From Candidatus Multivoradales bacterium (GTDB lineage: Bacteria > Acidobacteriota > Thermoanaerobaculia > Multivoradales > J023): a stretch of DNA of 64,000 bases. Shown here in pieces: positions 47,074 through 64,000 of this stretch. The notes beneath the pieces are model-generated. The model worked only from the letters and a program-made list of their open reading frames with translations. It was not told the origin of the DNA and did not search any database. The stretch spans positions 192,001-256,000 of the forward strand of contig CBDFLE010000006.1 of assembly GCA_965248925.1 (NCBI GenBank), written 5' to 3'. The position numbers and the translations under genes were made by a program. Numbering within the stretch: the stretch's first letter is position 1; each line of letters begins with the position of its first letter.

Positions 47074-47916
47074 TCAGCTCTGGTCCAACCAGCCGCCGTA
47101 GAGTTCCGGTCGACGGTCGCGAAAAAACAGCTGTCGCGCATGGCTAGCCTGGCACTCAGCGAGGTCGACATCACACAGCAGCAGATCATCTTCGAGCTTG
47201 GCGGCCCGCGCCTGCACCCGGCCAGCGGGGTCGACCACAAACGATTCCCCGGCAAAGGCCAAGGCTCCCTCGATCCCGACTCTATTGCACAGCGCCACGA
47301 AATAGCCGTTTTGAAAAGCAGCGGTGCGAAGCTCGGCCTCATAGAGACCCTCAGGCCACTCGTCGAGGGTGCCAGCCTGCGGAATCGCCACCAAATCGGC
47401 CCCTGCCAGGGCCAGCGCCCGCATGTACTCAGGATAGTGACGGTCATAGCAGATCGCCACCCCAATCTTGCCCACCCGCGTGTCGTAGACCGGCGCCCCA
47501 CGGTCTCCGGGATGGTAGTAGTCCTGCTCGTGAAAACCCTCATAGTCGGTGATGTGTACCATCCGCGTAACACCGAGTAGCGAGCCGTCGGCGTCGAACA
47601 CTGGCGAGCTATCGAAGGTGCGGCCCCGCGAGTCGATCTCGAACAGGTTGAACACCGTCACCAGCTGATGTTGCTGGGCACGCTCAGCCACCCGCTCACA
47701 ACTCGGTCCAGGAATGGTCTCCGCCAGCTCCAGCGCCCCGGCCTCGCCACAGCTGGCGACTTTTTTGAATTGGGGAAAGAAGCGGTCGAGCACCAGCTCG
47801 GGGAAGATCATCAACTCAGCACCGGCCAGGGCGGCACGGTCCATGGCGTCGAGCACCCGCGAGAGGTTCTCGACTCGATCGTCCGACGAGCTGAGCTGGG
47901 CAAGGGCGAGTTTCAT
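47074..47916 (-). CDS. Carbon-nitrogen hydrolase (nitrilase superfamily)
   Basis: FPEL, ICYDRHYPE, NRVG. The usual RKxH motif reads RMVH. Confidence 0.9.
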   Translation of the reverse strand: MKLALAQLSSSDDRVENLSRVLDAMDRAALAGAELMIFPELVLDRFFPQFKKVASCGEAGALELAETIPGPSCERVAERAQQHQLVTVFNLFEIDSRGRTFDSSPVFDADGSLLGVTRMVHITDYEGFHEQDYYHPGDRGAPVYDTRVGKIGVAICYDRHYPEYMRALALAGADLVAIPQAGTLDEWPEGLYEAELRTAAFQNGYFVALCNRVGIEGALAFAGESFVVDPAGRVQARAAKLEDDLLLCDVDLAECQASHARQLFFRDRRPELYGGWLDQS

Positions 47917-47933
47917 GGTCTGCTGCTCTCCAA

Positions 47934-48734
47934 TCAACCTCGCAACGGCGCACACAGCTCCCGCACCCGCGCTTCGAGCGTGGCCGGTAGATCACCTTCC
48001 CCGGCGTGCTCTTCTACCAGCCGCACTAGCTCGCTGCCGACCACCACGCCGTCGGCTACTTTGGCGATCGCCGCGACTTGCTCGGCGGTGGAGATACCGA
48101 AGCCGACCACCAGGGGATGGGGCAAGCGGCGGCGCAGGCGTTTGATCTCACGCAGGGTTTCGCGCGGTAGCTCGGTGGGCTCGCCGGTGACGCCGAGACG
48201 AGGAATGTAGTAAACGAATCCGGAGGAACTCTTGGCCACCGTCACCGCGCGCTTCTTGCCACTGGTGGGGGCCAGCAGGAAGATCGTATCGAGCCCTTTG
48301 GCGCGCAGTGCCGGTACGTACTCCCTCTGACCCTCCTCCGGCGGCAGGTCGACGCACAGCACTCCATCGACGCCGGACGATGCGGCCTGCTCGGCGAACA
48401 ACTCGATGCCGCGGGCGTGGATCGGATTGAAGTAGGTGAAAAGGACGATCGGCACTTCGAGCTGGCGGCGCTGGCGGGCGACCAACTCGAGAATGCCCGA
48501 CAAGTGAGTTCCCGAGTCTAGTGCCCGCACCGCCGCCCGCTGATTGACCGGGCCGTCGGCGATCGGATCGGAGAAGGGCACTCCTAGTTCGATCAAATCG
48601 GCGCCGCCGCGGGCCAGGGCGGCAATCAACTCGCCGGTGGTCTCAAGATCGGGATCGCCAGCGACCAGAAAGGGGATGAAGGCCGCCCGCTTCTCCGCTT
48701 TGCAGCGAGCGAAGGTCTCACTGATGGCACCCAT
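47934..48734 (-). CDS. trpA: Tryptophan synthase alpha subunit
   Basis: IELGVPFSDPIADGPV, VGFGIS. Confidence 0.97.
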   Translation of the reverse strand: MGAISETFARCKAEKRAAFIPFLVAGDPDLETTGELIAALARGGADLIELGVPFSDPIADGPVNQRAAVRALDSGTHLSGILELVARQRRQLEVPIVLFTYFNPIHARGIELFAEQAASSGVDGVLCVDLPPEEGQREYVPALRAKGLDTIFLLAPTSGKKRAVTVAKSSSGFVYYIPRLGVTGEPTELPRETLREIKRLRRRLPHPLVVGFGISTAEQVAAIAKVADGVVVGSELVRLVEEHAGEGDLPATLEARVRELCAPLRG

Positions 48735-48735
48735 C

Positions 48736-50067
48736 TCAGTCGTCCTCCCGCTGCGCCTGCTCGGCACGGTCTTGTTCGGAACGGTGCTTCTCGACCCCGT
48801 GCCAAGCCTGGCTGGCGGGATGCGCCATGACTTTGGTGGCGCCTTCGCGCCGTGGTTTCTCCGCCTCTGGCCGGGCGTCGTAGGCCAGCACCGATTCGAC
48901 ATCTTTGTCGCCGCGACCCGAGAGATTGACCAACAGGATCTTCTTCGGCGACAGCCGCCCCGCCACCCGCGCGGCATAGGCCAAGGCGTGCGCTGACTCG
49001 AGGGCCGGCAGAATGCCTTCGGTCTTGGCCAGTAGATGGAAGGCGGCGATGGCCTCGGCGTCGGTGGCGCTGTCGTAGCTCACCCTCCCTTCCTGGTGCA
49101 GCTGAACGTGCTCGGGTCCGACCGCCGGATAATCGAGGCCGGCTGAGATCGAGTGGGTACCGGCGACCTGCCCTTCCTCGTCTTGCAGCAACATCGTCCG
49201 AGTGCCATGCAACACTCCCAAGCTGCCGCCGGCAAAACGCGCCGCGTGCTCGCCCAGAGCCTCCCCCGACCCACCAGCTTCTACGCCGACCAGTTTGACC
49301 TTGCTGTCGGCCAAGAAAGCGGTGAACAAGCCAATCGCGTTGCTACCACCCCCGACACAGGCGATCGCGCCGGTGGGCGAGACCGTGCCAGCCTGGCGCT
49401 TGAGCTGACGGCGGGCTTCGTCGCCGATCACCCGATGAAAATCACGCACCATACGTGGGAAGGGGTCGGGACCCAGCACCGAGCCGAGTACGTAGTGGGT
49501 GTCGCCAACGTTCTTCACCCAGTCGCGCATCGCTTCGTTGATGGCGTCCTTGAGCGTCCGGCTCCCCGAGTCCACCGCCTCTACGGTGGCGCCGAGCAGC
49601 TGCATGCGATCAACGTTGAGGCGCTGGCGAACGGTGTCTTCGACCCCCATGTAGATCACGCACTCGAGCCCCAGAAGGGCCGCCGCGGTAGCGGTGGCCA
49701 CCCCATGTTGGCCGGCTCCGGTCTCGGCGATCACCCGCGTCTTGCCCATTTCGCGGGCAAGCAAGGTCTGGCCGATGGCATTATTCAGCTTGTGCGCGCC
49801 AGTGTGCAGCAGGTCTTCGCGCTTCAACCAAATCTGCGCGCCGCCAAGGTGATCCGTGAGCCGCTCGGCAAAGTACAACGGCGTCGGTCGGCCAGCGTAG
49901 TGCAACAAGAGCTGGCGCAACTGCTTCTTGAAGGCCCGCTTGCGACTCAGCCGGTCGTAGGCCCGAGCCAGCTCGGCAACCGGTACCATCAGCGTTTCAG
50001 CCACGAAACGGCCACCGTAGGCGCCGAAATACCCAGCGGCATCAGGCCGGCGATTTGCTCTCGCCAT
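48736..50067 (-). CDS. trpB: Tryptophan synthase beta subunit
   Basis: [27 protein letters not shown]. Confidence 0.98.
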
Positions 50068-50695
50068 GTCGTATCTCCTCGAAGAGCCGGCGCAGCAGCT
50101 CAGGATCCTTCACTCCAGGAGCGGATTCCACTCCGGAAGCGACGTCGATTCCATAGGGGCGTGCGGCAGCGATCGCGGCCCGCACATTGTCAGGATTGAG
50201 ACCACCAGCGATCAGCACCCGCTTGCTGCCAGTGGCTGCGGCCACCGAAGCGAAGTTCCAAGTTTGGCCGCTGCCGCCATAGAGGGATGGATGGCGGCTG
50301 TCGACCACGAACCCCCAGACCTCGCGGTAGGGCTCGAACAGGGCGCCATCGAACTGCTCTTCGACCCGCAGCGCTTTGATTGCCCGGCGGCCGAAGGGGG
50401 CCAAATCCGCCGGTCCCTCGTCGCCATGAAATTGCAGTAGGTCGAGAGGGACCGCAGCGGCAATCCGCTTTACCTCGGCCACCCCAAGATTGACGAACAC
50501 GCCCACCAAGAGCGCCCGGCCCGCCACCGCTCGGGCGATACCTCGGGCTTGCTCCAGGTCGATCGAGCGGGGGCTTGGAGGGTGGAAGTTGAGACCCAAG
50601 AAGTCGGCGCCGAGATCGACCGCCAGCAGCGCTTCCTCGGGTCGGCGCAAACCGCAGATCTTAACCCGCAGTCGGTCGCGGCTCGGCCCGCTCAC
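50042..50695 (-). CDS. trpF: Phosphoribosylanthranilate isomerase
   Basis: [31 protein letters not shown] overlap with trpC. Confidence 0.95.
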
Positions 50696-51489
50696 TCGCC
50701 GATCAGCTCGCGCAACTTGGCCCCTGGATCCGGCGCCTTGAGCAGAGCCTCGCCGATCAAGAAGGCGTCGAAACCGACCCGACGCAGCATGTCCAATTCG
50801 CCGATGCCGTGGATACCGCTCTCGGCCACTTTCAAGGCACTGGTCGGGAGGCTCGATTGCAGGGCCATCGAGTGACCGATCTCGACTTTGAAGGTGCGCA
50901 AATCGCGGTTGTTGACCCCGACCAACTCCCACAATTGACCGTCGAGTTTGATCAGATCCGACAAACCGTGAGTTTCGATCAGCGGCACCAAACCATAAGC
51001 TCGAGCCAGCTCGGCATAGCTCTTCAGCTCTTGGCCACTGAAAAGCGCCGCCACCAGGAGAACGGCGGTGGCGCCAGCACGCTTGGCCCAATGCAGCTGG
51101 ATCGGATCGACGATGAAATCCTTGGCGATCGCCGGTAGTCCCGAGACCTCGTGGCAGGCCGCCAACAGTTCGTAGCTGCCGTGGAAGAAATCGGGTTCGA
51201 CCACCACCGACAACGCGGCAGCGCCATTCTTGGCATAAGTACGCGCCATCTCTAGCGGCTCGAACTGATCGACCAGCGAACCCAGGGAGGGAGAGCCCAT
51301 CTTGATTTCGGCGATCACCGCCCGGCCGCGTCGTTCGCGCAGCGCCGCCAGGAAGGCGTTGTTGGCATCGCTGAGCAGCTGGCTGCCGTCGCCAGTGGGC
51401 TGGCGTAGGCGCTCGACGGCACGCATCTTTTCTACCCGGCGACGCCGTTGGTCGGTGATCTGGATCAGAATGTCGGCGACCTGACTCAA
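50692..51489 (-). CDS. trpC: Indole-3-glycerol phosphate synthase
   Basis: IAEIKMGSPS, KDFIVDPIQ, GVNNRDL, ESGI. Confidence 0.95.
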   Translation of the reverse strand: MSQVADILIQITDQRRRRVEKMRAVERLRQPTGDGSQLLSDANNAFLAALRERRGRAVIAEIKMGSPSLGSLVDQFEPLEMARTYAKNGAAALSVVVEPDFFHGSYELLAACHEVSGLPAIAKDFIVDPIQLHWAKRAGATAVLLVAALFSGQELKSYAELARAYGLVPLIETHGLSDLIKLDGQLWELVGVNNRDLRTFKVEIGHSMALQSSLPTSALKVAESGIHGIGELDMLRRVGFDAFLIGEALLKAPDPGAKLRELIGE

Positions 51490-51543
51490 ACTGCTCTCCT
51501 TCCCGCCGAGAATTCGGTTGCCCCTGAGGATACCGGAAGCCTC

Positions 51544-52557
51544 TCAAACTGCGAAACCCCGTAAGGCGTCGAGCTTTGCCGATGCCGCGCCACTCTTGAG
51601 GGCGTGCCGAGCAGCAACCAGGCCGGCGTCAAGGTCGGCGGCCACCCCGGCCACCCACAGTGCCGCGCCGGCATTGAGCGCGGTGATATCGGCCAAAGGA
51701 CCCTTCTCACCGGCAAAGATGCGTCGCAGCAAGGCAGCGTTGTCCGTGGCGCTGCCTCCAAGTAGGTCTTGCGGGCGCGCCAACTCGATGCCCAACTCGG
51801 TGGGGTCCAGGTCCCAGACTTGGACTCCTCCGTCGCGCACTTCGGCCACTCGGGTGGGGCCGGTGATGGTGATCTCGTCGAGACCATCGCTGCCGTGCAC
51901 CACCAATGCATGCTCACTGCCCAGCGCAGCCAGCACCTGGCCCACTTTGTCCACCAGGCTGGCGGAATAGACTCCCAGCAGCTGCCGCCTAGCGCCCGCT
52001 GGATTAGTCAGCGGACCGAGCACATTGAAGATCGTACGCAAGCCCAGGGCTTGGCGCACCGGCATCACCTCTTTCATCGCCGGGTGCAGCCTAGGGGCGA
52101 AGAGGAAGGCGATGCCGATTTCGTCGAGGGCGCGGCCGGCGGTCTCGGGTACGGTCTCGATCGACACCCCTAGCGCCGCCAACACATCGGCCGAGCCCGA
52201 CTTGCTCGACACCGAACGATTGCCATGCTTGGCCACCGGCGCGCCAGCCGCCGCTGCCACCAGAGCGGCGGCGGTGGAGATGTTGAAGGTGCCCTTGCCG
52301 TCGCCACCGGTGCCACAGGTGTCGACCGCCTCGGGGCGGTGATGGGAAATGGCGATCACCCGACGGCGCATGGCGGTGGCGGCGCCAGCAATCTCGGCCG
52401 CGGTTTCACCTTTCATCCGCAGGGCGACCAGTAGAGCCGTCTTGTGGACTTCGGACAATTCGCCATCCATCAATCGGCCAAAGAGGGTCTCGACCTGATC
52501 GCTGGTCAGATCCTGGCCGTCGATCAAGCGTTCGAGGGCGGTGTGGGTGTCTATCAT
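51544..52557 (-). CDS. trpD: Anthranilate phosphoribosyltransferase
   Basis: DTCGTGGDG, NISTA, KHGNRSVSSKSGSAD. Confidence 0.97.
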   Translation of the reverse strand: MIDTHTALERLIDGQDLTSDQVETLFGRLMDGELSEVHKTALLVALRMKGETAAEIAGAATAMRRRVIAISHHRPEAVDTCGTGGDGKGTFNISTAAALVAAAAGAPVAKHGNRSVSSKSGSADVLAALGVSIETVPETAGRALDEIGIAFLFAPRLHPAMKEVMPVRQALGLRTIFNVLGPLTNPAGARRQLLGVYSASLVDKVGQVLAALGSEHALVVHGSDGLDEITITGPTRVAEVRDGGVQVWDLDPTELGIELARPQDLLGGSATDNAALLRRIFAGEKGPLADITALNAGAALWVAGVAADLDAGLVAARHALKSGAASAKLDALRGFAV

Positions 52558-53165
52558 CGGCAACCCTCTTTCGTAGGGGCGCGCGGCTGTGCGCCCTCTT
52601 CCCCACAGAGGTCCAGGAAGTTCCGCAGCAAAGTCGGTCCGTCCGGAGTCAGCACGGATTCGGGATGGAATTGCACCCCCCAATAGGGCAGCTGGCGGTG
52701 GCGCAGGGCCATCAAGGTCTCGTCTTCGCTCCACGCGATAGCCGCCAGCTCCTCAGGAACAGTGCGCGGATTGACCGTCAGGCTGTGGTAGCGGGTCGCC
52801 TGGAAAGGATTGGGCAAGCCAACAAACAGCGGGTCTTCGTCGAAGCGTATTCGCGAAGTCTTGCCATGCATCAGCTCAGCGGCGCCTTCGACCCGCGCGC
52901 CGCAGGAAGTGCCCAGGCATTGATGCCCCAAACAAACCCCGAGTACGGGCAACTCAGGTCGGGCGGCCAGCAAGTCGACACACACCCCAGCGTTCTCCGG
53001 CCGGCCGGGGCCAGGTGAGAGCACCACCCCGCGATCCTGGCGCGCCAGGATCTGCGCCACATCCAGAGCATCGTTGCGCACCACCTCGACCTCGGCACCC
53101 GCTTCGCCGAGCAGCTGCACCAGGTTGTAGGTGAAGGAGTCGTAGTTGTCGATCAGCAGAATCAT
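52554..53165 (-). CDS. trpG: Anthranilate synthase component II (glutamine amidotransferase)
   Basis: IDNYDSFTYN, GVCLGHQ, QFHPES. Confidence 0.95.
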   Translation of the reverse strand: MILLIDNYDSFTYNLVQLLGEAGAEVEVVRNDALDVAQILARQDRGVVLSPGPGRPENAGVCVDLLAARPELPVLGVCLGHQCLGTSCGARVEGAAELMHGKTSRIRFDEDPLFVGLPNPFQATRYHSLTVNPRTVPEELAAIAWSEDETLMALRHRQLPYWGVQFHPESVLTPDGPTLLRNFLDLCGEEGAQPRAPTKEGCR

Positions 53166-54625
53166 TCGACTTGCTCCAGCTGGCGCGCCAGCTCTACCGC
53201 GGCGAGCAGGGCCGCTGCCTTGTCCTCGGTCTCACGCTGCTCCAGGCGCGGATCACTGTCGGCGACGATGCCAGCGCCGGCGGTGACCGAGGTTTCGCCA
53301 TCCTTGAACACCAACGTGCGGATGGTGAGGCAGGTGTCGACGTCGCCCGAGAACGACATGTAGCCCACCGCCCCAGCGTAGGGACCCCGGGCCTCGGGCT
53401 CGAGTTGATCGATGATCTGCATGGCGCGAATTTTCGGGGCTCCCGACACCGTACCGGCGGGAAAAGTGGCCAGCAAGGCGTCCAGCGGCGAATGGTCCTT
53501 GGCGAGATCGGCAACCACACTGGAAACGATGTGCATGACGTGGCTGTAACGCTCGATCTCCATGAAGCTGGCCACCTCGACACTGCCGATGGCGGCGACC
53601 CGGCCCAAATCATTGCGGCCCAGATCGACCAGCATGACGTGCTCAGCACGCTCCTTGGGGTCGGCTAGCAGCTCTTCGGCCAACTGCCGATCGGCCGCCG
53701 CGTCGGCACCGCGCGGGCGAGTGCCGGCGATCGGCCGGTTTTCTATTCTGCTGCCAATCTTGCGCACCAGCATCTCTGGCGAAGCACCCACCAGAGTGGC
53801 CTCGGGCAATTCCAACATCACCATATAGGGACTCGGGTTGACCACCCGCAAGGCACGGTAGAGAGCCAGCGCTGGAGGTGAATTCTCCACCGTGAAACGC
53901 CGCGCTAGCACGACCTGGAAGATATCGCCAGCGGTGATGTAGCGCTTCGCCCGGCGCACCGCGGCACGGTAGGACTCGCCGTCGAGGCTGACCCGCGATG
54001 GCAGCAGGTCGGCAGTCTCGCGCTGGCGACAGTCACTAGCCGGCATGGTCACCGCGCGGGTGCTGGCTTCGGCGGTCAGCAGCTGCTCGACCCGGCCCAA
54101 ACGACGCTTGGCGGCACTAGCGCTGACCTCGCCTTCAATCTCGTTGGCCATCACCACCACCCGCTGCCGCGCATGGTCAACGGCCACCACCGTATCGAAA
54201 CGACCCAGCTCGACAATCGGCAGGCCGAAGGGATCCGGCGGCCGCTCGCCCAAGCGCTCGACCAAACGGATAGTGTCGTAGCCGAAGAAACCCACCCAGC
54301 CACCGGTGAAGGGGATCGCGCCGCGCGCCGCCCGCACCCGGCCGAGAATCTCCGCTAGCGCCTCCAGCGGCGGCCCTTCGAAGATCTCCCGCCGCTGCCG
54401 ATAGCGCTCCACCACCACCCGGTTCTCGTACACTCGACAGATCTCCATCGGACCAGCGCCGAGAAAACTAAAGCGCGACACCTGATCGCCCCCGCTCACA
54501 CTCTCGAACAAGAAGCGCACCTTGGAGATGCTCTCGAGCCGGCGGTAGACCGCCAACGGCGTCAAGCTGTCAGCCAGTAGCTCGCGAGCATGGACGGTTG
54601 CCTGGCGTGGCGGCCCCGAGTTCAT
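53162..54625 (-). CDS. trpE: Anthranilate synthase component I
   Basis: LFES, GDIFQVV, EHVMLVDLGRND, GTVSGAPK. Confidence 0.96.
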   Translation of the reverse strand: MNSGPPRQATVHARELLADSLTPLAVYRRLESISKVRFLFESVSGGDQVSRFSFLGAGPMEICRVYENRVVVERYRQRREIFEGPPLEALAEILGRVRAARGAIPFTGGWVGFFGYDTIRLVERLGERPPDPFGLPIVELGRFDTVVAVDHARQRVVVMANEIEGEVSASAAKRRLGRVEQLLTAEASTRAVTMPASDCRQRETADLLPSRVSLDGESYRAAVRRAKRYITAGDIFQVVLARRFTVENSPPALALYRALRVVNPSPYMVMLELPEATLVGASPEMLVRKIGSRIENRPIAGTRPRGADAAADRQLAEELLADPKERAEHVMLVDLGRNDLGRVAAIGSVEVASFMEIERYSHVMHIVSSVVADLAKDHSPLDALLATFPAGTVSGAPKIRAMQIIDQLEPEARGPYAGAVGYMSFSGDVDTCLTIRTLVFKDGETSVTAGAGIVADSDPRLEQRETEDKAAALLAAVELARQLEQVE

Positions 54626-55263
54626 TTCGCCACCTCTTCAGGCTGCGGCCCTGACCCTTGATGCCGAGCCCGTAACTTGGCCGCCACCCGTTGCGGATCA
54701 ACCTCCCGCGCGGCCAGTAAGACCAACAAGTGATAAAGCAGGTCGGCAGCCTCATCAGCCAGTTGATCCCCATCTTGGGCCAGCGCCGCGATCACCGTCT
54801 CGGTGGCTTCCTCACCCACCTTCTGTGCCACCCGTTCGATGCCCTGCGCCAGCAACCGTGCGGTGTAGCTTTGCTCAGCATCGGCACCACGGCGCTCGGC
54901 GATCACCCGTGCCAACCAGCCGAGTTCGAGCGTTGCCGGATTGGGCTCGAAACAACTGCGGGTGCCGCGATGGCAGGTCGGACCCGCGGGCCGCGCCCGC
55001 AGCAGCAGAGTGTCGTGATCGCAGTCGGCGCACACCTCGACCACTTCGAGAGTGTTGCCCGAGGTCTCCCCCTTCTGCCACAGGCACTGCCGCGAGCGGC
55101 TCCAGAACCAGGCCCGGCCGGTCGCCAGGGTACGCTCGACCGCTTCCTGGTCGGCCCAGGCCAGCATCAGCACAGCGCCGCTGGTCTCGTCTTGCACCAC
55201 GACTGGCAACAGCCCTCTTGAGTCGTAAGTCAGGGCTGAGGCATCGATCTGATTCGTCTTCAC
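54622..55263 (-). CDS. hisIE: Bifunctional PR-AMP cyclohydrolase / PR-ATP pyrophosphatase
   Basis: [31 protein letters not shown]. Confidence 0.96.
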
Positions 55264-56081
55264 GGGCTCACCTCTCGCACCGGAAATCCTTCGTCTCGCA
55301 GATGCCGTTTGACATCGCCAACGCTGTATTGATGCTGATGAAAAATCGACGCCGCCAGCACCGCCGCAGCACCGGCGCCGAGAGCAGCCGCCAGATGGGC
55401 CGGCCGGCCGGCGCCCCCCGAAGCGATCACCGGCACCGCCGTGCGACTGGAGATGGCGGCGAGCAGTTCGAGGTCGTAACCGTCCTGGGTGCCATCGCTG
55501 TCGATCGAGGTCAGCAAGATCTCACCCGCGCCTCGTTCGACCCCTGCGAGGGCCCAGGCGACGGCGTCGAGATCGCGGGCCTGGCGGCCACCGTGGGTGA
55601 CCACTTGCCAGCGCGGAGAACTGGCTGCGGCGGACTCGGCGGGCAAACGCCGGGCATCTACCGACAGCACCACGCATTGGGCACCGAAGCGCCGCGCCAG
55701 CTGGTCGAGCAACTCCGGCTGGTCGAGGGCAGCGGTGTTGATCGCCACCTTGTCGGCGCCGGCCCGCAGCAAGCGTTCAGCATCCGCGACCTGGCGCACG
55801 CCGCCGCCCACCGTCAGCGGTACGAACACTTGCTCGGCGGTACGAGCCACCCATTCGAGATCTGTATCGCGGCGTTCCGGCGCCGCGGTGATGTCGAGAA
55901 AGACAATCTCGTCGGCGCCTTGGCCGGCATAGCGCGCAGCCGCCTCGGCCGGATCGCCCTGGTCGACCAAATTCTGAAACCGCACCCCCTTGACCACCCG
56001 TCCGGCGCGGACATCGAGGCAGGGAATCACCCGAAAAGTGAGCCCGCTGCCGGCGATGCCCCGCGAGTCCAGGGCGCGCAT
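55260..56081 (-). CDS. hisF: IGP synthase cyclase subunit
   Basis: [26 protein letters not shown]. Confidence 0.97.
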
Positions 56082-56809
56082 CAGGCGTCCTCCGCCGCCG
56101 TCGCGGCGGCCATGGCCTCTGCCAATGAGAAAAGGCCTTCGTAGAGCGCCTTGCCGACAATCGCCCCGGTCACTCCGGCAGTGGTCGCCGCGGCCCGTAA
56201 ATCATCCAGGCTGGCGATGCCGCCGGACACCAGAGCCGGCAAGCCAGTGAGTTCGGCGACCCGGGTGGTAAGGGGCAGATTGGGACCTTCCAGCATGCCG
56301 TCGCAGTCGATATCGGTCACCAAGACCGCTGGGCAGGGCAGCCCCTGCAAGCGCTGGCAGAGTTCCTCCAGACTAACTCCAGCGGCCTCGCGCCAACCGG
56401 CCACACGGGGCTCGCCAGCGGCGGTCTCCACCGCTGGCACCAGCTGACCGGGATGGGCCGTGGCCAGCTGGCGAAAGAGGTCGAAATCGCGGGCCACCAT
56501 CGAACCCAGCACCACCCGTTCACAACCCGCCGCCAGGGCTCGTTCGACCGCCGGCTGATCCTTCAAACCGCCACCGAGTTCGATCCGTGGCTGGCCGCGG
56601 GAAACCAGCTCCTCGATCAACGCGAGCTGCTGCCGCTCACCGAAAGCGGCATCGAGGTCGATCACGTGCACCAGCTCGACACCTTCAGCGGCGTACTCGG
56701 ACAGCACCCACGAGGGATCGAGGCCATAGAGGGTCGTGTGGCGGTCATCACCATGCTCCAGACGCACCACCTGGCCGTGGCGCAGGTCGATTGCCGGAAT
56801 CAGCTGCAC
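56081..56809 (-). CDS. hisA: ProFAR isomerase
   Basis: IPAIDL, VVRL, TDI..DGML, SGG, GKALY. Confidence 0.93.
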
Positions 56810-57453
56810 CGAGCCTCCTCCCCAGGGTTGGCCAATTCTAAGAAGTTGGCCAACAGCCGCAGGCCCACCGCGCCGCTTTTCTCAGGATGAAACTGGGTGC
56901 CCAGCACTCGGCCACGAGCGGCAATGGCGGCGAAAGCGCTGCCGTGCTCGGTGCGCGCCAAGCAAAGCTCAGCGGGTACTTCGAAGGCCGCGAAACTGTG
57001 GACGAAGTAGACGTAGCTTCCTTCCTCCAGGCCGGCCATCAGTGGATGATCGGCAATCCCCAGCAAGCGATTCCAACCAATATGTGGCAGCGGCACGCCA
57101 GCCGGTAGCTGGCGCACCGTGCCGGGCAGCAAATCGAGGCCATCGGTGCGGCCGAATTCCTCGCCGGCGGTAAACAGCAGTTGATAGCCAACGCAGATGC
57201 CGAGCAGCCAGGCGCCCGCGGCAACCGCCTCCCGCAACGCCAGTTCGAGAGGGCCGCGCAGCGCCTCGCGGGGCGGCTTGAAGGCACCAACTCCGGGCAG
57301 GATCAAGCAGCGGGCAGCGCCGACGACCGCCGGCTCGGCTGAGATCCGCGGATCACTGCCGAGGTGCCGCAGCGCTCGCGCCACATTGCCCAGGTTGCCA
57401 ACCCCGGCATCGATCACCACCACTTGCGGGCGGTCTGTTGCCGACCGGTTCAT
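56800..57453 (-). CDS. hisH: IGP synthase glutamine amidotransferase
   Basis: LPGVGAF, GICVGYQ, PHIGWN, QFHPEKS. Confidence 0.96.
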   Translation of the reverse strand: MNRSATDRPQVVVIDAGVGNLGNVARALRHLGSDPRISAEPAVVGAARCLILPGVGAFKPPREALRGPLELALREAVAAGAWLLGICVGYQLLFTAGEEFGRTDGLDLLPGTVRQLPAGVPLPHIGWNRLLGIADHPLMAGLEEGSYVYFVHSFAAFEVPAELCLARTEHGSAFAAIAARGRVLGTQFHPEKSGAVGLRLLANFLELANPGEEARCS

Positions 57454-58091
57454 TCGCTCAGCGTCCCCTTGGTCGAAGGGACCTCAGCGGCCGTCACTTC
57501 CCCGCCAGCGGTGTTCACCCTCAAGGCCACCGCCTGGCGCAAGGCCAGGGCCACTGCCTTGAACGCCGCCTCAGCGGCATGGTGCGCATTGCGCGCGGTC
57601 AGCACATCGAGATGCAGGGTAAAGCGCCCACGGTCGGCGAAAGCGTGAAAGAAATCGGCGATCAGGGTGAGTGGAAATTCGCCGGTCACCCAGCTATGTT
57701 CGATCTCCGCCGGCACCTGATAGGCGAAAAAACCACGGCCGGAAAGATCCACCACCGCCCGTGCCAAAGCCTCGTCGAGGGGGGCGTAGGCATGGGCAAA
57801 ACGCACCACGCCCCGGCGCTCGCCGAGGGCTTGACGCAGAGCATCTCCGAGAGCGATACCCACATCCTCGACGGTGTGGTGCAGATCGACGTGGACATCC
57901 CCCGCGGCAGAAATATCCAACCCCAACCCACCGTGAGTGGCCAGAGCGTCGAGCATGTGGCCGAAAAAGCCGTTGGGCACTTGCAGCGACTTCTGTTCAG
58001 GGTGGTCGAGATCGAGGGTCAGTTGCACCGAAGTCTCGCCGGTGCGGCGATCGACCGAGGCACGGCGCGGATCGGCTGCTGCGTTGCTCAT
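57450..58091 (-). CDS. hisB: Imidazoleglycerol-phosphate dehydratase
   Basis: RRTGET, HHTVED, NAHHAAE, PSTKG. Confidence 0.96.
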   Translation of the reverse strand: MSNAAADPRRASVDRRTGETSVQLTLDLDHPEQKSLQVPNGFFGHMLDALATHGGLGLDISAAGDVHVDLHHTVEDVGIALGDALRQALGERRGVVRFAHAYAPLDEALARAVVDLSGRGFFAYQVPAEIEHSWVTGEFPLTLIADFFHAFADRGRFTLHLDVLTARNAHHAAEAAFKAVALALRQAVALRVNTAGGEVTAAEVPSTKGTLSE

Positions 58092-59182
58092 GACGGATCC
58101 TCCGAAGTCGCGGCAAGAATCTCCACCAGCGCAGCACGGGTATCGCGCAACGCCCGGCCATGGCCGACCGAGATTCGCCAGCAGTCACTCAAGCCCGGAT
58201 AGCCGCTGACATCGCGCACCCGAATGCCGCGACCTTCCAAGCCGGCGAGGGTCGCGGCCGCGCGCCGATCGCGGACCAACAAGAAATTAGCCTGGGACGG
58301 GAACACCTCCAGCCCCTGCTCGCTGAGCATTTCCACCCACTGCCGACGCCGGCCGAGGATCACCCGCACTCGCCGCTCGACAGCATCCTTGGCGGCTAGC
58401 GCTACCTCACCGGCCAAAGCGCTCGCTCGACCGACGTTGTAGGGCAGCTTGACCTTGATCAGCTCACTGACCAGGCGCGGATCCGCCAGCAGGTAGCCCA
58501 ACCGCTGCCCGCCCAAGGACCAGGCCTTGGAAAAAGTGCGAAAGATCACCAGGTGGGGATAGAGATCGAGCAGCGGGCGATAGTCGTGACGACAAAATTC
58601 AGCGTAGGCATTGTCGAGCAGTAGCGGCGCTTCCAACCGCTCGAGCAATGCCGCGATCCGGGCCGGCTCGGCGGCGTCGCCAGTCGGATTGTTGGGGCTG
58701 CACAAGATCACCGGCCGGCGAGGGTCGCGCTCGATCTCGGCCGCCAGCTCAGCCAGCGGCAGCCGCAGATCGGCCGCTGGGCCGACGAAGCGCGGCGTGG
58801 CGGCGGCGCGCAGCACGAACATGCGGTAGAGACTGAAGCTGGGCAGCGTCGCCAACACCTCTCCACCGGGCCTGGCCAGCGCCTCCAGCGCCACCCCGAG
58901 CAGCTCGTTCGAACCGTTGCCAACCAAGATACCGGCCGCCGGCCAATCGTTGTGGCGACCGAGAGCAACGCGCAGATCGTCGGCATGAAAATCCGGATAG
59001 TCGGCCCAGGCGGTGGCCAACCAACGCGCCGCGATCCGCCGTTTGATCCGCCCCGGCAGCTCCCAGGGCACTTCGTTCTGGTCCAGCTTGTGACGGCAGG
59101 GGGACAGATCGAGGTGGTATTCCTTCAGCTGGCGCAGTTCGTCGCGCACCAAGATAGCCGGGTCGAGTCGCGCACTGGCCAC
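58088..59182 (-). CDS. hisC: Histidinol-phosphate aminotransferase
   Basis: KLDQNE, GNGSNE, PNNPTG, RTFSK. Confidence 0.95.
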   Translation of the reverse strand: MASARLDPAILVRDELRQLKEYHLDLSPCRHKLDQNEVPWELPGRIKRRIAARWLATAWADYPDFHADDLRVALGRHNDWPAAGILVGNGSNELLGVALEALARPGGEVLATLPSFSLYRMFVLRAAATPRFVGPAADLRLPLAELAAEIERDPRRPVILCSPNNPTGDAAEPARIAALLERLEAPLLLDNAYAEFCRHDYRPLLDLYPHLVIFRTFSKAWSLGGQRLGYLLADPRLVSELIKVKLPYNVGRASALAGEVALAAKDAVERRVRVILGRRRQWVEMLSEQGLEVFPSQANFLLVRDRRAAATLAGLEGRGIRVRDVSGYPGLSDCWRISVGHGRALRDTRAALVEILAATSEDPS

Positions 59183-59184
59183 CC

Positions 59185-60504
59185 TCAGTCCTCCTCGGGC
59201 GCCACTCGCAGGCGCGCTGAGCGGGCGTGCGCCGGCAGCCCTTCAGCGTCGGCCAGCACCGCGGCGGCCTCGGCGGCGGCGGCGGCGGCGGTGGCCGTGA
59301 AGTGAATTTGGTGACCACGACGAACGAAGTCCTCCACCCCGAGGGCCGAGGCGAAACGCGCCGAACCCGCGGTGGGCAAGACATGGCTTGGGCCGGCGAG
59401 ATAGTCGCCAAAAACTTCCGGCGTCGTCGCCCCGACAAATACCGCCCCAGCCGCCACCACTCGCTCAGCAAGAGTCTCGGCCGCCGCTCCCACCAACTGT
59501 AGATGCTCGGGGGCCAAGCGCTCCACCAGAGCCTGTGCTGCTGCCATGTTGGCCACCACGAACGCGCGCCCGCCCGCCGCCAAGGCAGCGCGGGCAGTCT
59601 TGCGGGTCGGTAGGTCACGCAGCTGGCGCCGCAGCTGGCGATCGACCTGCGAAGCAAAGCGGCGCTGCTCGGTGATCAACACCGCCACCGCCTGCGGATC
59701 GTGCTCGGCCTGGGCCAGCAAGTCGGCGGCGACCCAAGCTGGATCGGCCCCCTGGCTGGCGACGATCACCACCTCGCTAGGACCTGCGAGGCCATCGATC
59801 GCCACGGTTGTCGACACCAGGTGTTTGGCGGCGGTCACCCAGGCATTGCCCGGTCCGACAATCTTGTCCACCCGCTGAATGGTCTCGGTGCCGTAAGCCA
59901 GGGCGGCCACCGCCTGCGCTCCACCCATCCCCCAAACCTCGGTGATGCCCAGCCGACCCAGGGCCCAGCGCAGCGCCGGGTTGGCGGCCAGGGCTTGGGG
60001 CGGGGTCGCCACGACGATCTCCTGCACCCCGGCGAGCCGCGCCGGAATGGCGGTCATCGCCACCGTCGACGGGTAGGCGGCGCGCCCACCCGGCACATAG
60101 AGGCCGACCCGGCGCAGCGGCAGGCGGCGCTCGATCAGCTCGACACCGTCGACTTCTAATTCGAATCCGGGGTGAACTTGTTGCTGGTGATAGCTCTCGA
60201 TCGCCGCCATGGCGCGCTCGAAAGCGGCGACGAAACCGGTCGGCAGAGCGCTATCTTCCCCCTCCCCACCACTCCCGACCGCGGGCACGAAGCGCAGCTC
60301 CTCAACCTGTTTGACACTGACGCCGTCGTACTTCCGCAGCGCTTTCAACAGAGCTTTATCGCCCCTTCGGCGCACCCTGTCCAGCAACCGAGCGGTGCGC
60401 TTGAGCACCACCGGGTCCAGCAGCCGGTCGGCGCGACGGACCAGGGCTTCGATCGCCGCTTGACCGCGCTTCGAAGTCGCCATGCGAATCTGTAGCTCAG
60501 CCAT
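59185..60504 (-). CDS. hisD: Histidinol dehydrogenase
   Basis: YVPGG, GPGN, AGPSE, QAEHD, PEHL, GPSHVLPT. Confidence 0.96.
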   Translation of the reverse strand: MAELQIRMATSKRGQAAIEALVRRADRLLDPVVLKRTARLLDRVRRRGDKALLKALRKYDGVSVKQVEELRFVPAVGSGGEGEDSALPTGFVAAFERAMAAIESYHQQQVHPGFELEVDGVELIERRLPLRRVGLYVPGGRAAYPSTVAMTAIPARLAGVQEIVVATPPQALAANPALRWALGRLGITEVWGMGGAQAVAALAYGTETIQRVDKIVGPGNAWVTAAKHLVSTTVAIDGLAGPSEVVIVASQGADPAWVAADLLAQAEHDPQAVAVLITEQRRFASQVDRQLRRQLRDLPTRKTARAALAAGGRAFVVANMAAAQALVERLAPEHLQLVGAAAETLAERVVAAGAVFVGATTPEVFGDYLAGPSHVLPTAGSARFASALGVEDFVRRGHQIHFTATAAAAAAEAAAVLADAEGLPAHARSARLRVAPEED

Positions 60505-61150
60505 CTTCCACCTCCCACTGCAGCTCGACCAGGCCGGCTGCTTCGAGCCGATCGAGCCAGCCATTGAGCACCTGACGATGCCTCTGATAGGCCGCCCGAC
60601 CGACCACCAAACAAGGCTGCACCCGACGGGCCACTTCGAGTTCCACCAGACCGTTCTCACGCAGCGTGCCGCCGGTCTGGACGATGTCAAGAGCCACTTC
60701 CGACAGATCCAAAATCGGCCCTAACTCGACCGAGCCGTAGAGCTTGAAAACCTCCGCCCCCCAAGGCTTGGAGCGCAGCCAGCGGCGGGCGGTGCGGGGG
60801 TATTTGCTGGCGAGCCGCAATTGCTGACCGGGCCGCGGCAAAGTGCCCGGACGGCCGATCAGTGACAGCCGACTGCCGCCCTCGGTGAGCCGCGCCGGCA
60901 CCAGCAGATCGCCGCCACCCACCTCCTCCAAGACATCACTGCCGACAATGCCGCAGTCGGCGATGCCGTGGCCAACATAGAGGGGCAGGTCCCAGTCCTT
61001 GAGCAACAGAACCTCGACCCCATCGCCGGGCAACCGCTGCTGCAACTTGCGCCCACTGGTGTCAAGCCCGGCGAAAGTCAGGCCGGCGGCGCGCAGCGCT
61101 TCCAGCGCCGGTCGCTGATTGCGCCCCTTGGGCAGCCCCCAGCGAATCAC
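60497..61150 (-). CDS. hisG: ATP phosphoribosyltransferase, short form
   Basis: GLPKGR, ASKYP, GSVELGP, DIVQTGGTLRENGL. GTGA overlap with hisZ. Confidence 0.93.
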   Translation of the reverse strand: MIRWGLPKGRNQRPALEALRAAGLTFAGLDTSGRKLQQRLPGDGVEVLLLKDWDLPLYVGHGIADCGIVGSDVLEEVGGGDLLVPARLTEGGSRLSLIGRPGTLPRPGQQLRLASKYPRTARRWLRSKPWGAEVFKLYGSVELGPILDLSEVALDIVQTGGTLRENGLVELEVARRVQPCLVVGRAAYQRHRQVLNGWLDRLEAAGLVELQWEVEDG

Positions 61151-62139
61151 CGCCCTTCCTCCTCTGCTCCGGACGGAGCCAACCGGCCCAGACTGAGAGA
61201 GAAGCCCGCGGCGGTGACCTCGGCCCCGAGGGTGTAGAATAGGCGATCGTAGCGCCCGCCAGCGCCTATTTCTTGCGACCCCTCGGCAGCATAGGCACGA
61301 AAGATCAGGCCATCGTAGTAGGCCCCCGGCCCGAGTTCGGGACGTAACCTCGGCTCGAGGATCTGGTCGGCGAACTCGGCCAAATCGACCCGCAGCTGCA
61401 ACCTCGGATGGCTCTCTCCAAGCCGCTCCACCAAGACCATTAGCCGCCGCAGCTGCGCTACTGCGATCTCGCCAAGGCACTCGACGTCGGCCGGCACACC
61501 CTCCCGAACCACTTGCAACAACCCTGGCGACATGTCACGCACCGCGGCGCGATCACGGCGTAAGACTGCCGCCGCCAGCCGTCCCACTTGCTCCACTCCA
61601 GACTCTGCCAGCGGCTGATCGAGGGCACCGGCAAAGCCCAGCACCACCAACGGCCGCCGTTGCTCATTGCTGAGCGGTGGGCAAGCCGCTTCTAGCAGGG
61701 CCAAGAAACTCTCAAGCGCAAGCTCTTCGCCAGCCGTACCCTCCATGCCAAGAACTTCGGCTCCCACCTGGTAGAGTTCCCGCTGGCGACCGGCGCGTTC
61801 CTCTTGGTAGCGCAGCACATCGCCGCGGTAGTAGAGCTTCAGCGGCAACTCCAAGAACTGCAACCGTGGCGCCAGCAAGCGGGCTAACATGGGGGTGAAA
61901 TCTCCCCGCAGCGCCAACACCTCCCCGTCGCGGTCCACCAAGCGGTAGAGCTGCTCACGACTAGCCGGACTGAGCAAGGCCTCGTAAGGCGCCAGGTAGT
62001 CCACCACCGGCAGCACAACCTCAGAAAAACCCTCGGCTTCGAGCCTTGCCACCAAACGCTGCTCCAAGGCACGACGACGGCGCGCACTACCCATCATCAA
62101 AGCTTCGACACCGGTCGGCAGAGAAGCAGAGATTCTCAT
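61147..62139 (-). CDS. hisZ: ATP phosphoribosyltransferase regulatory subunit
   Basis: HisRS-like fold: LALRGDFT, RELYQVGAE, YYDG, GGRYD. Adjacent to short hisG. Confidence 0.92.
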   Translation of the reverse strand: MRISASLPTGVEALMMGSARRRRALEQRLVARLEAEGFSEVVLPVVDYLAPYEALLSPASREQLYRLVDRDGEVLALRGDFTPMLARLLAPRLQFLELPLKLYYRGDVLRYQEERAGRQRELYQVGAEVLGMEGTAGEELALESFLALLEAACPPLSNEQRRPLVVLGFAGALDQPLAESGVEQVGRLAAAVLRRDRAAVRDMSPGLLQVVREGVPADVECLGEIAVAQLRRLMVLVERLGESHPRLQLRVDLAEFADQILEPRLRPELGPGAYYDGLIFRAYAAEGSQEIGAGGRYDRLFYTLGAEVTAAGFSLSLGRLAPSGAEEEGR

Positions 62140-63701
62140 TGCGCCTGCCCCTCCGGCAGGCGCAGCAAGCGGCGCGCAAGATCTTCGTCGAGGCTGTAGC
62201 GGGTCATCAGCAAGAATTGCGGTAGGGCCTGGGCGAACAGCGCCTCACGCCCCGGGACCACGGCTATACCTCGTGCTTCGAGGGCCTCGACCAAGGCAGT
62301 CTCATGTCGACCGTAGACCAAATCCACCACCGTTGCGTCGCTGGCCACGGCCGCTACGTCGAAGGGCAAAGGATCGTTCTCGCCATGGCCCAGTCCGGTC
62401 GCATGGATGATGATGTCGAAACCTGAAGGGTCGAAGGCGTCGAGGGCGACAAAGGGCAAAGCAAGTTCGGTCGAGGCTTTCTTGCCCCGCTCCTCACCGC
62501 GGTTGACCAGTGTGACTCGAGCCCCTTCGAGCTGAAGACCGTAGGCCGCGGCTCGGCCAGCGCCACCACAGCCGACAATCGCCGCCCGGACGCCTCGGAA
62601 AGCCACCCCCCAGCGCCGCAACGGCTCGACAACTCCCTCCGGATCCGTGGTCTCGGCCTCCCACACTTCGCCACTCTTGACCAAGGTGTTGGCGGCGCAG
62701 ATGTGCTGTGCCCGCGGACTCGAGGCACCAGAGACGGCCAGCGCAACTTCCTTGTAAGGGGCGGTCACCGACAGGCCACGCAGCGGAAACCCGAGATCTT
62801 CCAGGCTGCCCGACTCGACAACTTCGATCCAAAAATCACCGAACGACTCGATATGGAACGGCAGATAAAGATAAGGCAAGCCGAGTTCCCGATAAGCACC
62901 GTTGTGCAGCCGCGGCGACAACGAATGCAGCACCGGCCGGCCGGCAATGCCGTAAAGCCCTTCGATCGGCGGCAACTCGGGGAGGCCATAGTCGCGGCGC
63001 AAACGCGCTACCGACAGCTGACCCGGCGCGGCCGGGGTTTCGCTAGCGGATCCGTAGACCCAAGGGCTACCCAGCCGCGGCGCTAGCAGGCGGGTCCAGG
63101 TGGCGATCTCACCCACGCCAAAAGAAATCACATCCTCACGCCCCAGCGAACGCAGCAAGGCCAGCGCGCGGATGCCGTCGCCCGACCCGGCAGCGATCGG
63201 GATCACCTTGTAGTAGCGCGCCTCGGTCGAGGTCATGTGCTCGAAACGCTGACGCAACGCCGTCAAGTGAATCGCCGGACCGTGCCACGAGATCAACCGC
63301 TTGCTCGCCGGCACCTGCACTAGGAGTTCGGGAAAAAGATCCCGCTCAGCTTCCAGATCCACCAGGTCGTAGCCCTCGGCCGCTGCACTCAAGCGCTGCT
63401 GGCGCCGTGCCTTGCCCGCCTCGGATTTGCCACCCTCCGCCCGGCTGCGCAAAGTGTAGAGCAAGCGCCCAGAGAAATGCTGGCGCAGAAACTCGACCTC
63501 GAGATCGCCCACCAAGTCGCCTCGTACTTCGAGCACGTCAGCGAGCTGTGACAGCTCTTTCAGGTCGGCACCGTCACTGGCCGGTGGATGGGTCAGCGTA
63601 GCAACCAGCTCGGTGCGCTGTTGTGGGTCGCGAACGCTCCGACGGTCGTTTCTAGAGCCGTCGTTGCTGACGCTGTCGTCGTTGGATGTGCGATCAGACA
63701 C
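62136..63701 (-). CDS. aroDE: Fused type I 3-dehydroquinate dehydratase / shikimate dehydrogenase
   Basis: AroD: LEVRGD, TLRSRAEGG, APGQL. AroE: HSLSP.LHN, SVTAPYK, ANT, TD, GCGGAG. Preferred start is GTG 63701; the ORF-track ATG 63719 lies inside the terminator loop. Confidence 0.9.
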   Translation of the reverse strand: MSDRTSNDDSVSNDGSRNDRRSVRDPQQRTELVATLTHPPASDGADLKELSQLADVLEVRGDLVGDLEVEFLRQHFSGRLLYTLRSRAEGGKSEAGKARRQQRLSAAAEGYDLVDLEAERDLFPELLVQVPASKRLISWHGPAIHLTALRQRFEHMTSTEARYYKVIPIAAGSGDGIRALALLRSLGREDVISFGVGEIATWTRLLAPRLGSPWVYGSASETPAAPGQLSVARLRRDYGLPELPPIEGLYGIAGRPVLHSLSPRLHNGAYRELGLPYLYLPFHIESFGDFWIEVVESGSLEDLGFPLRGLSVTAPYKEVALAVSGASSPRAQHICAANTLVKSGEVWEAETTDPEGVVEPLRRWGVAFRGVRAAIVGCGGAGRAAAYGLQLEGARVTLVNRGEERGKKASTELALPFVALDAFDPSGFDIIIHATGLGHGENDPLPFDVAAVASDATVVDLVYGRHETALVEALEARGIAVVPGREALFAQALPQFLLMTRYSLDEDLARRLLRLPEGQAQ

Positions 63702-63702
63702 C

Positions 63703-63736
63703 AAAAAACCTCTTTCCATGGAATCCGGAAAGAGGT
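63703..63736 (-). terminator. Attenuator terminator hairpin
   Basis: mRNA ACCUCUUUCC-GGAUUCCAU-GGAAAGAGGU followed by UUUUU: a perfect 10-bp stem immediately before the first gene. Confidence 0.9.
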
Positions 63737-63768
63737 CTCAGGTGCGGCGTTTGCCCTCGTCCCGGATT
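63722..63768 (-). promoter_or_regulatory. Antiterminator stem
   Basis: mRNA AAUCCGGGACGAGG (63768-63755) pairs with CCUCUUUCCGGAUU (63735-63722) at 13 of 14 positions (one G-U). This consumes the 5' arm of the terminator. Confidence 0.8.
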
Positions 63769-63794
63769 ACGAACGGCCGGGACCCTCGCCCAGC

Positions 63795-63875
63795 CTAGGA
63801 TCCGTGATGCGCGTGATTCCACCAGCCACAGCACGCCGTGGTGTTCAGGGTCTGGAGGCTTCGCAGATTCGACAT
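63795..63875 (-). CDS. Attenuation leader peptide MSNLRSLQTLNTTACCGWWNHAHHGS
   Basis: Manual translation. GAGG RBS upstream. Tandem TGG TGG followed by CAC-GCG-CAT-CAC. Lies upstream of the terminator and the his/trp operon. Confidence 0.88.
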   Translation of the reverse strand: MSNLRSLQTLNTTACCGWWNHAHHGS

Positions 63876-63917
63876 CGTCGTTTCCTCGGGAGGCGAAAGG
63901 CGCCTCAAGAGGCGGTG

Positions 63918-63946
63918 ATTACAGCAGCTGGCCCAAGGGCTGTCAA
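63918..63946 (-). promoter_or_regulatory. sigma70-type promoter
   Basis: TTGACA (63946-63941), 17-nt spacer, TGTAAT (63923-63918), about 40 nt upstream of the leader ATG. Confidence 0.75.
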
Positions 63947-64000
63947 GTTCTCATGCCGGCACCAAAAAGGGCCGGAGCAACAACAGATGCAGAGGCTCGG

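Follow-up and report, generated by a model that had tools for sequence, protein, structure and literature searches.

Here we describe a leader RNA that precedes a merged aro-his-trp operon in a Candidatus Multivoradales bacterium (phylum Acidobacteriota, class Thermoanaerobaculia, order Multivoradales), near one end of a 64,000-nucleotide stretch of contig CBDFLE010000006.1 (positions 192,001 to 256,000; called the window below). We conclude that this leader is probably a ribosome-dependent leader-peptide attenuator of the operon, sensing the charging of both tRNA-Trp and tRNA-His. Dual Trp+His attenuation had been proposed in an initial annotation of the window, and it is now supported by the way in which the leader follows the his-trp block through related genomes, by the match between leader codons and operon content, and by covariation of both alternative folds. 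The operon behind the leader, aroDE-hisZGDCBHAFIE-trpEGD(CF)BA, has 16 genes that abut or overlap on one strand over ~16 kb; Pfam domains identify it as the merged operon that had been claimed.

The leader open reading frame (ORF) translates as MSNLRSLQTLNTTACCGWWNHAHHGS (26 aa), with the tail ...GWWNHAHHGS. Codons for end products of the operon are clustered in a short upstream ORF, which is a defining feature of leader-peptide attenuators. The stop codon is followed by five RNA elements, the last of which carries the Shine-Dalgarno (SD) sequence of the first structural gene:

63795..63875, minus strand: leader ORF, 26 codons plus TAG, with the ATG at 63875 and the TAG at 63797-63795
63824-63819, 63815-63813 and 63809-63804, minus strand: predicted regulatory codons W18-W19, H21 and H23-H24, respectively
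63789..63794, minus strand: element 1, GCUGGG (GCCGGG in relatives), directly 3' of the stop codon; pairs with element 2
63776..63783, minus strand: element 2, GUCCCGGC; its partner is element 1 or element 3
63755..63766, minus strand: element 3, UCCGGGACGAGG; its partner is element 2 or, as antiterminator, element 4
63724..63736, minus strand: element 4, ACCUCUUUCCGGA; terminator 5' arm and antiterminator 3' arm
63703..63717, minus strand: element 5, GGAAAGAGGU, the terminator 3' arm, then six U (63708-63703)
63709..63712, minus strand: aroDE SD, GAGG, within element 5 and 7 nt before the GTG start

The closest HisD matches come from metagenome-assembled genomes (MAGs) of Acidobacteriota, labelled Thermoanaerobaculia, Holophagales or 'Multivoradales', which have the same aroDE-his-trp order. 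Conservation of the Trp (W) and His (H) codons and of the stems among relatives, which the initial annotation had set as its test, was indeed found. Related leaders were sorted by their downstream DNA, mapped with the window's proteins, and the last 13 codons of each distinct leader were scored; identical leaders from duplicate records were counted once.

his+trp merged operons: 39 distinct leaders, 38 with at least one W and at least two H
his-only operons: 10 distinct leaders, 9 with at least four H (mostly HHHHHH) and 8 without W
trp operons without a his operon: 7 distinct leaders, 6 with at least two W and 4 without H
DAHP synthase: 15 distinct leaders, 15/15 with at least five Tyr+Phe codons

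Genus g17, with 21 matched genomes, contributes three distinct leaders to these counts, L072 and L073 (his+trp) and L167 (trp not seen). A his-only leader, L067 (HHHHHH), is unmatched by the RNA model described below and stands outside the table. DAHP synthase was identified by Pfam in 4 of the 15 cases and by tblastn in all 15.

The position of the leader tracks the his-trp block. Wherever a lineage of the order has a merged his-trp block, a W+H leader precedes that block, and named MAGs as well as other families of this order have further W+H leaders ahead of aroDE-his-trp. Among 30 aroDE loci (the window's own included, and one without upstream DNA), 15 have a W/H-rich small frame just upstream, with tails such as ...SWWHGVHHGV and ...GWWWHGVHHFGS. 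The lack of a leader at the other aroDE loci is explained by the positions of hisD and trpE: where aroDE lies apart from the his block (G010, G017, G004, G001, G033 and G014), aroDE is leaderless and a W+H leader stands before hisZ, and in G029 the leader sits between aroDE and hisZ. No leader was seen before the separate trpE of G024 or before hisF-hisIE-trpE of G035. The order of W and H residues varies by lineage (WWHGVHHHG, SWWAHGHGKG, RHWHVHHS, HHHGWWHHLS, LHWHHWTHN), the fourth of these being the tail of L210, which represents the sole merged-operon genus in a family with separate His-only and Trp-only leaders. Evidently, W+H leaders keep their composition, not their sequence. His is encoded in the leaders by CAT (76 codons) and CAC (57).

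Several further observations concern leaders and their neighbors. In the window's own family the tail often reads W-W-H-G-V-H-H-H-G, with the Gly and Val between the His residues conserved; for this stretch (63809-63824 in the window, and its counterparts in alignment A1, described below) no pairing partner was found. A WW-containing ORF in L048 was considered as a leader and rejected; it is unmatched by the RNA model and apparently lies inside a hisIE-homologous stretch upstream of trpE. Locus L191 (G030:C1:387450-401700) has a second W+H leader, followed by an aroDE copy with internal stops and then by hisZ fragments, and is to all appearances a decayed duplicate of the operon head. In L022 (G002), an aroDE-trpE operon has no W/H leader; instead, TTCACGACA-like direct repeats run from ~120 to 20 nt upstream of aroDE, 3' of a TTGACA...TCTAAT promoter-like site. 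These repeats may be a different, repeat-based control region.

The five elements can adopt two mutually exclusive folds: 1:2 + 3:4, in which element 5 is single-stranded, and 2:3 + 4:5, which forms the terminator. The terminator hairpin, ACCUCUUUCC-(9 nt)-GGAAAGAGGU followed by U6 (63736-63703), has a G+C-rich stem of 10-11 bp in which 63736-63727 pair with 63717-63708. As in leader-peptide attenuators generally, an intrinsic terminator separates the leader ORF from the first structural gene, and the antiterminator overlaps the terminator 5' arm and is exclusive of the terminator. When leaders are placed side by side, elements 3, 4 and 5 read CCGGGACGAGG (63766-63755), ACCUCYUUCCGG and CCGGAARGAGG plus a U-run, respectively.

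Both folds are conserved with compensatory changes. Alignment A1 is an unfitted MAFFT alignment of 20 leaders, the seed, in which terminators had already been located; as a control, pairing partners were slid by 1-3 columns. In A1, 94.7% of cells are paired in the 2:3 + 4:5 fold, and 8/18 pairs are double-changed (slid controls at most 65.5%); for 1:2 + 3:4 the values are 88.5% and 7/17 (slid controls at most 64.5%). A covariance model was then built for each fold. In the model-fitted alignments, which lean towards the modelled structure, 2:3 + 4:5 is 95.4% paired across 66 sequences with 14/18 pairs changed on both sides, and 1:2 + 3:4 is 93.2% paired across 46 sequences with 11/17 pairs changed on both sides. 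Alignment A2 omits 13 short reverse-strand matches to the palindromic terminator and the doubtful full-length rows L078:35-153:+, L003:1489-1614:- and L227. Across the unfitted and fitted alignments, helix 3:4 is 87-94% paired, with compensatory changes, and the terminator state 93-98%. In the Trp-only leader L079, elements 1, 2 and 3 have changed together, to GCCGAAGC, GCUUCGGC and CCGGAGC, and in a more distant family helix 2:3 has become GCGCCCC/GGGGCGC.

These helices include most of those originally drawn: the proposed C:D (GUCCCGG/CCGGGAC), D:E and E:F correspond to 2:3, 3:4 and 4:5, and all are conserved with compensatory changes. One proposed helix fared differently. The complementarity of B:C (GGAUCCU 63803-63797 with AGGGUCC 63786-63780) is present in the window, but its conservation is absent in relatives, where segment B, which is codons 25-26, varies freely; we therefore rejected it as a functional helix. 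The conserved partner of segment C is GCUGGG (63794-63789), next to the stop codon. The worry that H23 and H24 abut segment B, raised in the initial annotation, falls away with B:C, because the conserved helix 1:2 begins after the stop codon.

With the terminator-state model, a single copy of the scaffold is found in the window's genome (8 Mb, 6 contigs), and 62 of 151 genomes sampled from the class are matched, some of them with two or three copies. In a sample of the phylum, 9/151 genomes were matched, 7 in the class and 2 outside it; those two, from ~139 genomes outside the class, are weak and doubtful, and we rejected them, one being an ordinary terminator that follows a gene, the other uncertain. 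One weak match outside the class, L246 (G216:C96:22267-25385, at about position 1500 of the locus), has a small frame ending ...GRGRCCRTTRRPASGG, then a strong terminator-like hairpin and U-run, with a long ORF downstream; either chance or a Cys-codon leader could account for it.

For a leader peptide to control this switch, its codons must lie where a stalled ribosome favors the antiterminator and the stop codon where it favors the terminator. Both the geometry and masked folding place them so. The distance from stop codon to element 1 is -1 to +2 nt in 43/46 leaders, and for 217 of 228 W/H codons 13 nt or more separate the start of the codon from element 1. The last W/H codon most commonly starts 15 nt 5' of element 1 (21/46 leaders); footprint data put the 3' edge of the ribosome ~15 nt from the codon in its A site. 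In the window, H21 and H23 start 21 and 15 nt before element 1. For masked folding, the window RNA was truncated after element 4, because equilibrium folding with the full terminator gave no discrimination, and everything up to the A site +12 was masked. Placing any of codons 14-23 in the A site yields P(1:2) values of 0.98-0.99 and a P(3:4) of 0.96; for an A site at H24, S26 or the stop codon, P(3:4) drops to 0.01, 0.11 and 0.08, respectively. By geometry and masked folding together, read-through is expected for a stall at W18, W19, H21 or H23 and termination for a ribosome at the stop codon, with H24 on the border between the two.

We suggest the following mechanism. A ribosome translating smoothly to the last codons or the stop would cover element 1; helix 2:3 would then pair, the 4:5 terminator would form, and transcription would end near 63703. 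A ribosome held at W18, W19, H21 or H23 by a shortage of charged tRNA would leave element 1 free, so that 1:2 forms first and element 3 is free for element 4; no terminator would form, and the aroDE ribosome-binding site would be open. Because a stall at either the Trp or the His codons would free element 1, either shortage alone should open the operon, and we infer an OR logic. Stalling, timing, termination and the starvation response itself we likewise infer, from sequence. PRPP (phosphoribosyl pyrophosphate) is a precursor shared by the his and trp pathways, and one may speculate that it provides the rationale for joint control.

When the window RNA is left untranslated, read-through is predicted, with a P(3:4) of 0.96 for the truncated RNA; across the family the corresponding result is ambiguous (15/46 leaders). 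Such read-through would set the window apart from the E. coli trp leader, which shows superattenuation when untranslated. According to PMC1183508, a ribosome takes ~1 s to be released at a stop codon and transcription proceeds at 50 nt/s; ~40-48 nt must be transcribed after element 1 before 2:3 can form. Since these times are comparable, basal read-through may be appreciable.

The hairpin appears to have a second role. The ribosome-binding site of the first gene lies within a regulated hairpin, the usual arrangement for SD sequestration, and the 2:3 + 4:5 state would thus also bury the aroDE SD. In 24/39 his+trp cases the start of a long ORF is no more than 45 nt from the hairpin, the modal distance being 7 nt. 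The eight nucleotides after element 5 contain at least five U in 58/71 family members and in 28/39 his+trp relatives; in 8/39 his+trp relatives they contain at most three, and those leaders may regulate translation alone. In the DAHP synthase members the hairpin lies ~300 nt from the gene start and therefore cannot act on the SD there.

Side observations on these DAHP synthase leaders suggest a further specificity. The scaffold with Tyr/Phe-rich tails (for example, ...YAYYYGYFT) precedes a DAHP synthase gene (PF00793 + PF18152) at L192, L201, L202, L204-L206, L212, L214, L215, L218, L219, L225 and L228-L230, within the initial 300 nt of each locus when the RNA match is read forward. We regard it as a candidate attenuator by which Tyr and Phe would control the first shikimate step.

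A number of results weigh against dual attenuation, or against parts of it. The match between codons and operons is imperfect. G031, with an aroDE-trp operon and no his genes, has a leader with three His codons and only one Trp; five and two His codons occur in L193 and L223, respectively, where the trp operon includes a weak hisZ-like gene; the his-only leader L207 has one Trp codon; and in the his+trp leader L092 the only Trp lies 14 codons before the stop. Moreover, relatives are not independent, so that all such counts overstate the number of evolutionary events. An SD-like tetramer precedes an in-frame ATG in only 10/39 related leaders, by a crude test. The placement of codons is not perfect either: H24 is only 12 nt from element 1, and a stall there may mask it. 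In the masked fold of the window, an A site at G25 still gives a P(3:4) of 0.70, and a 16-nt mask moves the switch one codon earlier, with a P(3:4) of 0.75 at the stop codon. The masked-fold switch pattern appears in only 25/46 leaders, the remaining 21 being all-terminator (10), all-antiterminator (3) or other (8). With the full terminator present, the terminator is favored at every ribosome position (P 0.68-0.83), which implies that the switch must be kinetic, as the choice of fold is in classical attenuators. Finally, we found no coding-region helix with element 1: its mean score was 0.63, as against 0.77 for shuffled upstream RNA, and pairing of element 1 with upstream RNA exceeds the control in only 15/46 leaders. 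A hidden segment-1 helix was accordingly rejected, and the leader has no counterpart of the 1:2 helix of trp or the A:B helix of his attenuators. Given the absence of that helix, we suggest that the ribosome itself takes over the role of the classical segment 1.

The first of these exceptions has a close comparison. G031 and G171 are two species of the same genus; L231 (G171) has aroDE-his-trp behind the tail ...WWRLHVHTHAA, and L232 (G031) has aroDE-trp behind ...RWRSHVHLHGA. G031 looks like a recent excision of his with a leader that lags behind.

G031 also shows that leader His codons can persist without his genes, and together with the closeness of H24 to element 1 this is what would be expected if the window had an ordinary Trp-only attenuator, its His codons being relics or chance and having no sensing role. 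We nevertheless consider that very unlikely: His codons occur in 38/39 his+trp leaders, across lineages whose peptides differ in order, they are missing from 4/7 leaders of trp operons without his genes, and runs of His alone serve his-only operons on the same scaffold. H21 and H23, moreover, stand at distances from element 1 where a stall leaves it free. The converse, a His-only attenuator with incidental Trp codons, is scarcely credible. The single Trp beside the His run of L207 does show that a lone W is possible without a trp gene, but tandem or clustered W is found in nearly all his+trp leaders and is missing from every other his-only leader to which a peptide was assigned, and the same scaffold carries Trp-only leaders before trp operons.

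A different objection is that control is translational only, the 4:5 hairpin hiding the aroDE SD without meaningful termination of transcription. The GAGG within the 3' arm and the U-poor hairpins of 8/39 his+trp relatives are in its favor; the window's own G+C-rich stem of 10-11 bp with six U directly after it, the prevalence of U-runs in the family (58/71), and the DAHP synthase hairpins, which are out of reach of the SD, make it distinctly unlikely. We also considered that the RNA might be a riboswitch or a protein-binding element to which the small ORF is irrelevant, as the high conservation of the element sequences and the infrequency of SD-like motifs before the leader ORF (10/39) might suggest. 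That is highly improbable, since one ligand or protein cannot explain four kinds of operon whose peptides are each rich in codons for their own end product. The stop codon abuts element 1 in 43/46 leaders, no Rfam riboswitch or T-box is matched, and the need of each element for two partners explains their conservation. Dual Trp+His attenuation is thus the reading that we retain.

Taken together, the data make us lean, with modest confidence, towards a broader joint reading, in which the class has its own, previously undescribed, family of modular leader-peptide attenuators. A single five-element scaffold would be reused before his, trp, merged his-trp and DAHP synthase operons, and only the last dozen leader codons would be rewritten when operons fuse or split. 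With the ribosome in place of segment 1, termination would need a ribosome parked at the stop codon, and one hairpin would be both terminator and SD mask. The Trp+His version would be a natural OR gate whose two inputs belong to unrelated pathways.

The signals upstream of the leader ORF were confirmed by re-reading the sequence: the promoter TTGACA-N17-TGTAAT, the GAGG ribosome-binding site and the 26-aa ORF are all present on the minus strand, as first claimed.

63941..63946, minus strand: -35-like hexamer TTGACA, read from the sequence and recurring with the -10 in relatives
63918..63926, minus strand: -10-like TGTAAT (63923-63918), 17 nt from the -35, with TGC just upstream (extended -10-like)
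63884..63887, minus strand: SD-like GAGG, 8 nt 5' of the leader ATG

A consensus scanner flagged neither the leader promoter nor the terminator in the window, the promoter because position 2 of its -10 hexamer is G and not A, and the terminator because its loop of 9 nt exceeds the scanner's maximum of 8. The arrangement TTGACA-N-TG(C/G)TGTAAT does, however, recur upstream of 14/49 related leaders, as against 0.1 expected from shuffles, at 70-154 nt 5' of the start of the RNA model; it was found also before leaderless aroDE genes. This recurrence makes the promoter call in the window plausible, and the unusual -10, with G at position 2, seems typical of the lineage.

With its N15/16 spacer, the motif was noted at 63918-63946 in the window and upstream of L006, L014, L015, L064, L065, L078, L079, L088, L096, L099, L182 and others, and may be the housekeeping promoter form of the lineage. 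A small predicted hairpin, GCCUC-UUGA-GAGGC, lies at ~63900-63913 on the minus strand of the window, close to where the leader transcript is expected to start.

The downstream genes were assigned by Pfam, with coordinates taken from their ORFs:

63701-63699, minus strand: aroDE GTG start, deduced from aligned relatives
62136..63701, minus strand: aroDE, fused 3-dehydroquinase / shikimate dehydrogenase (PF01487 + PF08501)
54622..62139, minus strand: hisZ, hisG, hisD, hisC, hisB, hisH, hisA, hisF and hisIE, abutting or overlapping
47934..54625, minus strand: trpE, trpG, trpD, trpC-F, trpB and trpA

By Pfam, the his and trp gene sets are complete and separate. The hisIE/trpE overlap is 4 nt, with the start of trpE inside the hisIE stop, and a second control region would not fit between the his and trp parts. 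A carbon-nitrogen hydrolase gene (PF00795; window 47074-47955, minus strand) overlaps the end of trpA and may be the last gene of the operon.

A cmscan search of window positions 62000-64000 against Rfam, at E up to 10, found no match in the leader, with the Trp leader, His leader and T-box families included; the first two we take to be RF00513 and RF00514. Searches of L161, L209, L213 and L228 at E up to 1 also gave no matches. Our searches of the open-access literature turned up neither a described Trp+His leader nor described attenuators from this phylum; according to PMC2965389, predicted attenuators of Acidobacteria had almost no assigned functions. If our conclusions are correct, a function can now be assigned to attenuators in Acidobacteriota, and the leader peptide described here reads two amino acids of separate pathways, showing how attenuation can adapt to operon fusion. 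The relatives with split operons, which have single-signal leaders on the same scaffold, would form a natural series for the gain and loss of regulatory codons. The design departs from the textbook trp and his attenuators in lacking segment 1 and in placing an SD inside a terminator arm, and, if true, provides a compact part for synthetic control by two inputs. Such leaders can be annotated in genomes and metagenomes with the RNA model built here.

How does this leader compare with known systems? The trpL leader of E. coli has four segments, with its Trp codons inside segment 1. Like trpL, the window has a short leader ORF in which tandem Trp codons stand a few codons ahead of the stop, a mutually exclusive antiterminator and terminator, and a stop codon at which the ribosome would cover the start of the antiterminator chain. 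Unlike trpL, it has five elements, all after the stop, no helix in the codon region, His codons as well as Trp, an operon that also contains his and aro genes, and a terminator arm that bears the SD of the next gene. In the enterobacterial hisL leader, segment A contains a run of seven His codons and pairs with segment B. Its relay of alternating helices, in which masking of the first decides the last, and its regulatory His codons resemble what we propose for the window; the window leader differs in having three scattered His codons and two Trp codons, and no equivalent of A:B.

Multivalent attenuators are known for thr and ilv, with Thr+Ile and Leu/Val/Ile codons, respectively. In Actinobacteria, too, ilvB leaders with Ile/Val/Leu codons are described (PMC1262725). 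As in the thr and ilv leaders, one peptide in the window mixes regulatory codons for several amino acids made by the regulated operon. There, however, the amino acids belong to one branched pathway, whereas here separate pathways are joined only by operon fusion. A His-codon leader before hisZ outside the Proteobacteria also has a precedent, the His leader peptide upstream of hisZ/hisS paralogues in bacilli (PMC2965389), although that leader belongs to a different phylum and is without Trp codons or trp genes. Like the window operon, the aromatic supraoperon of Bacillus subtilis unites aro, trp and his-family gene content in one transcription unit. That supraoperon is controlled by TRAP, an RNA-binding protein, and contains only hisC from the his pathway; the window operon, by contrast, includes the whole his pathway and is putatively controlled by a translated leader.

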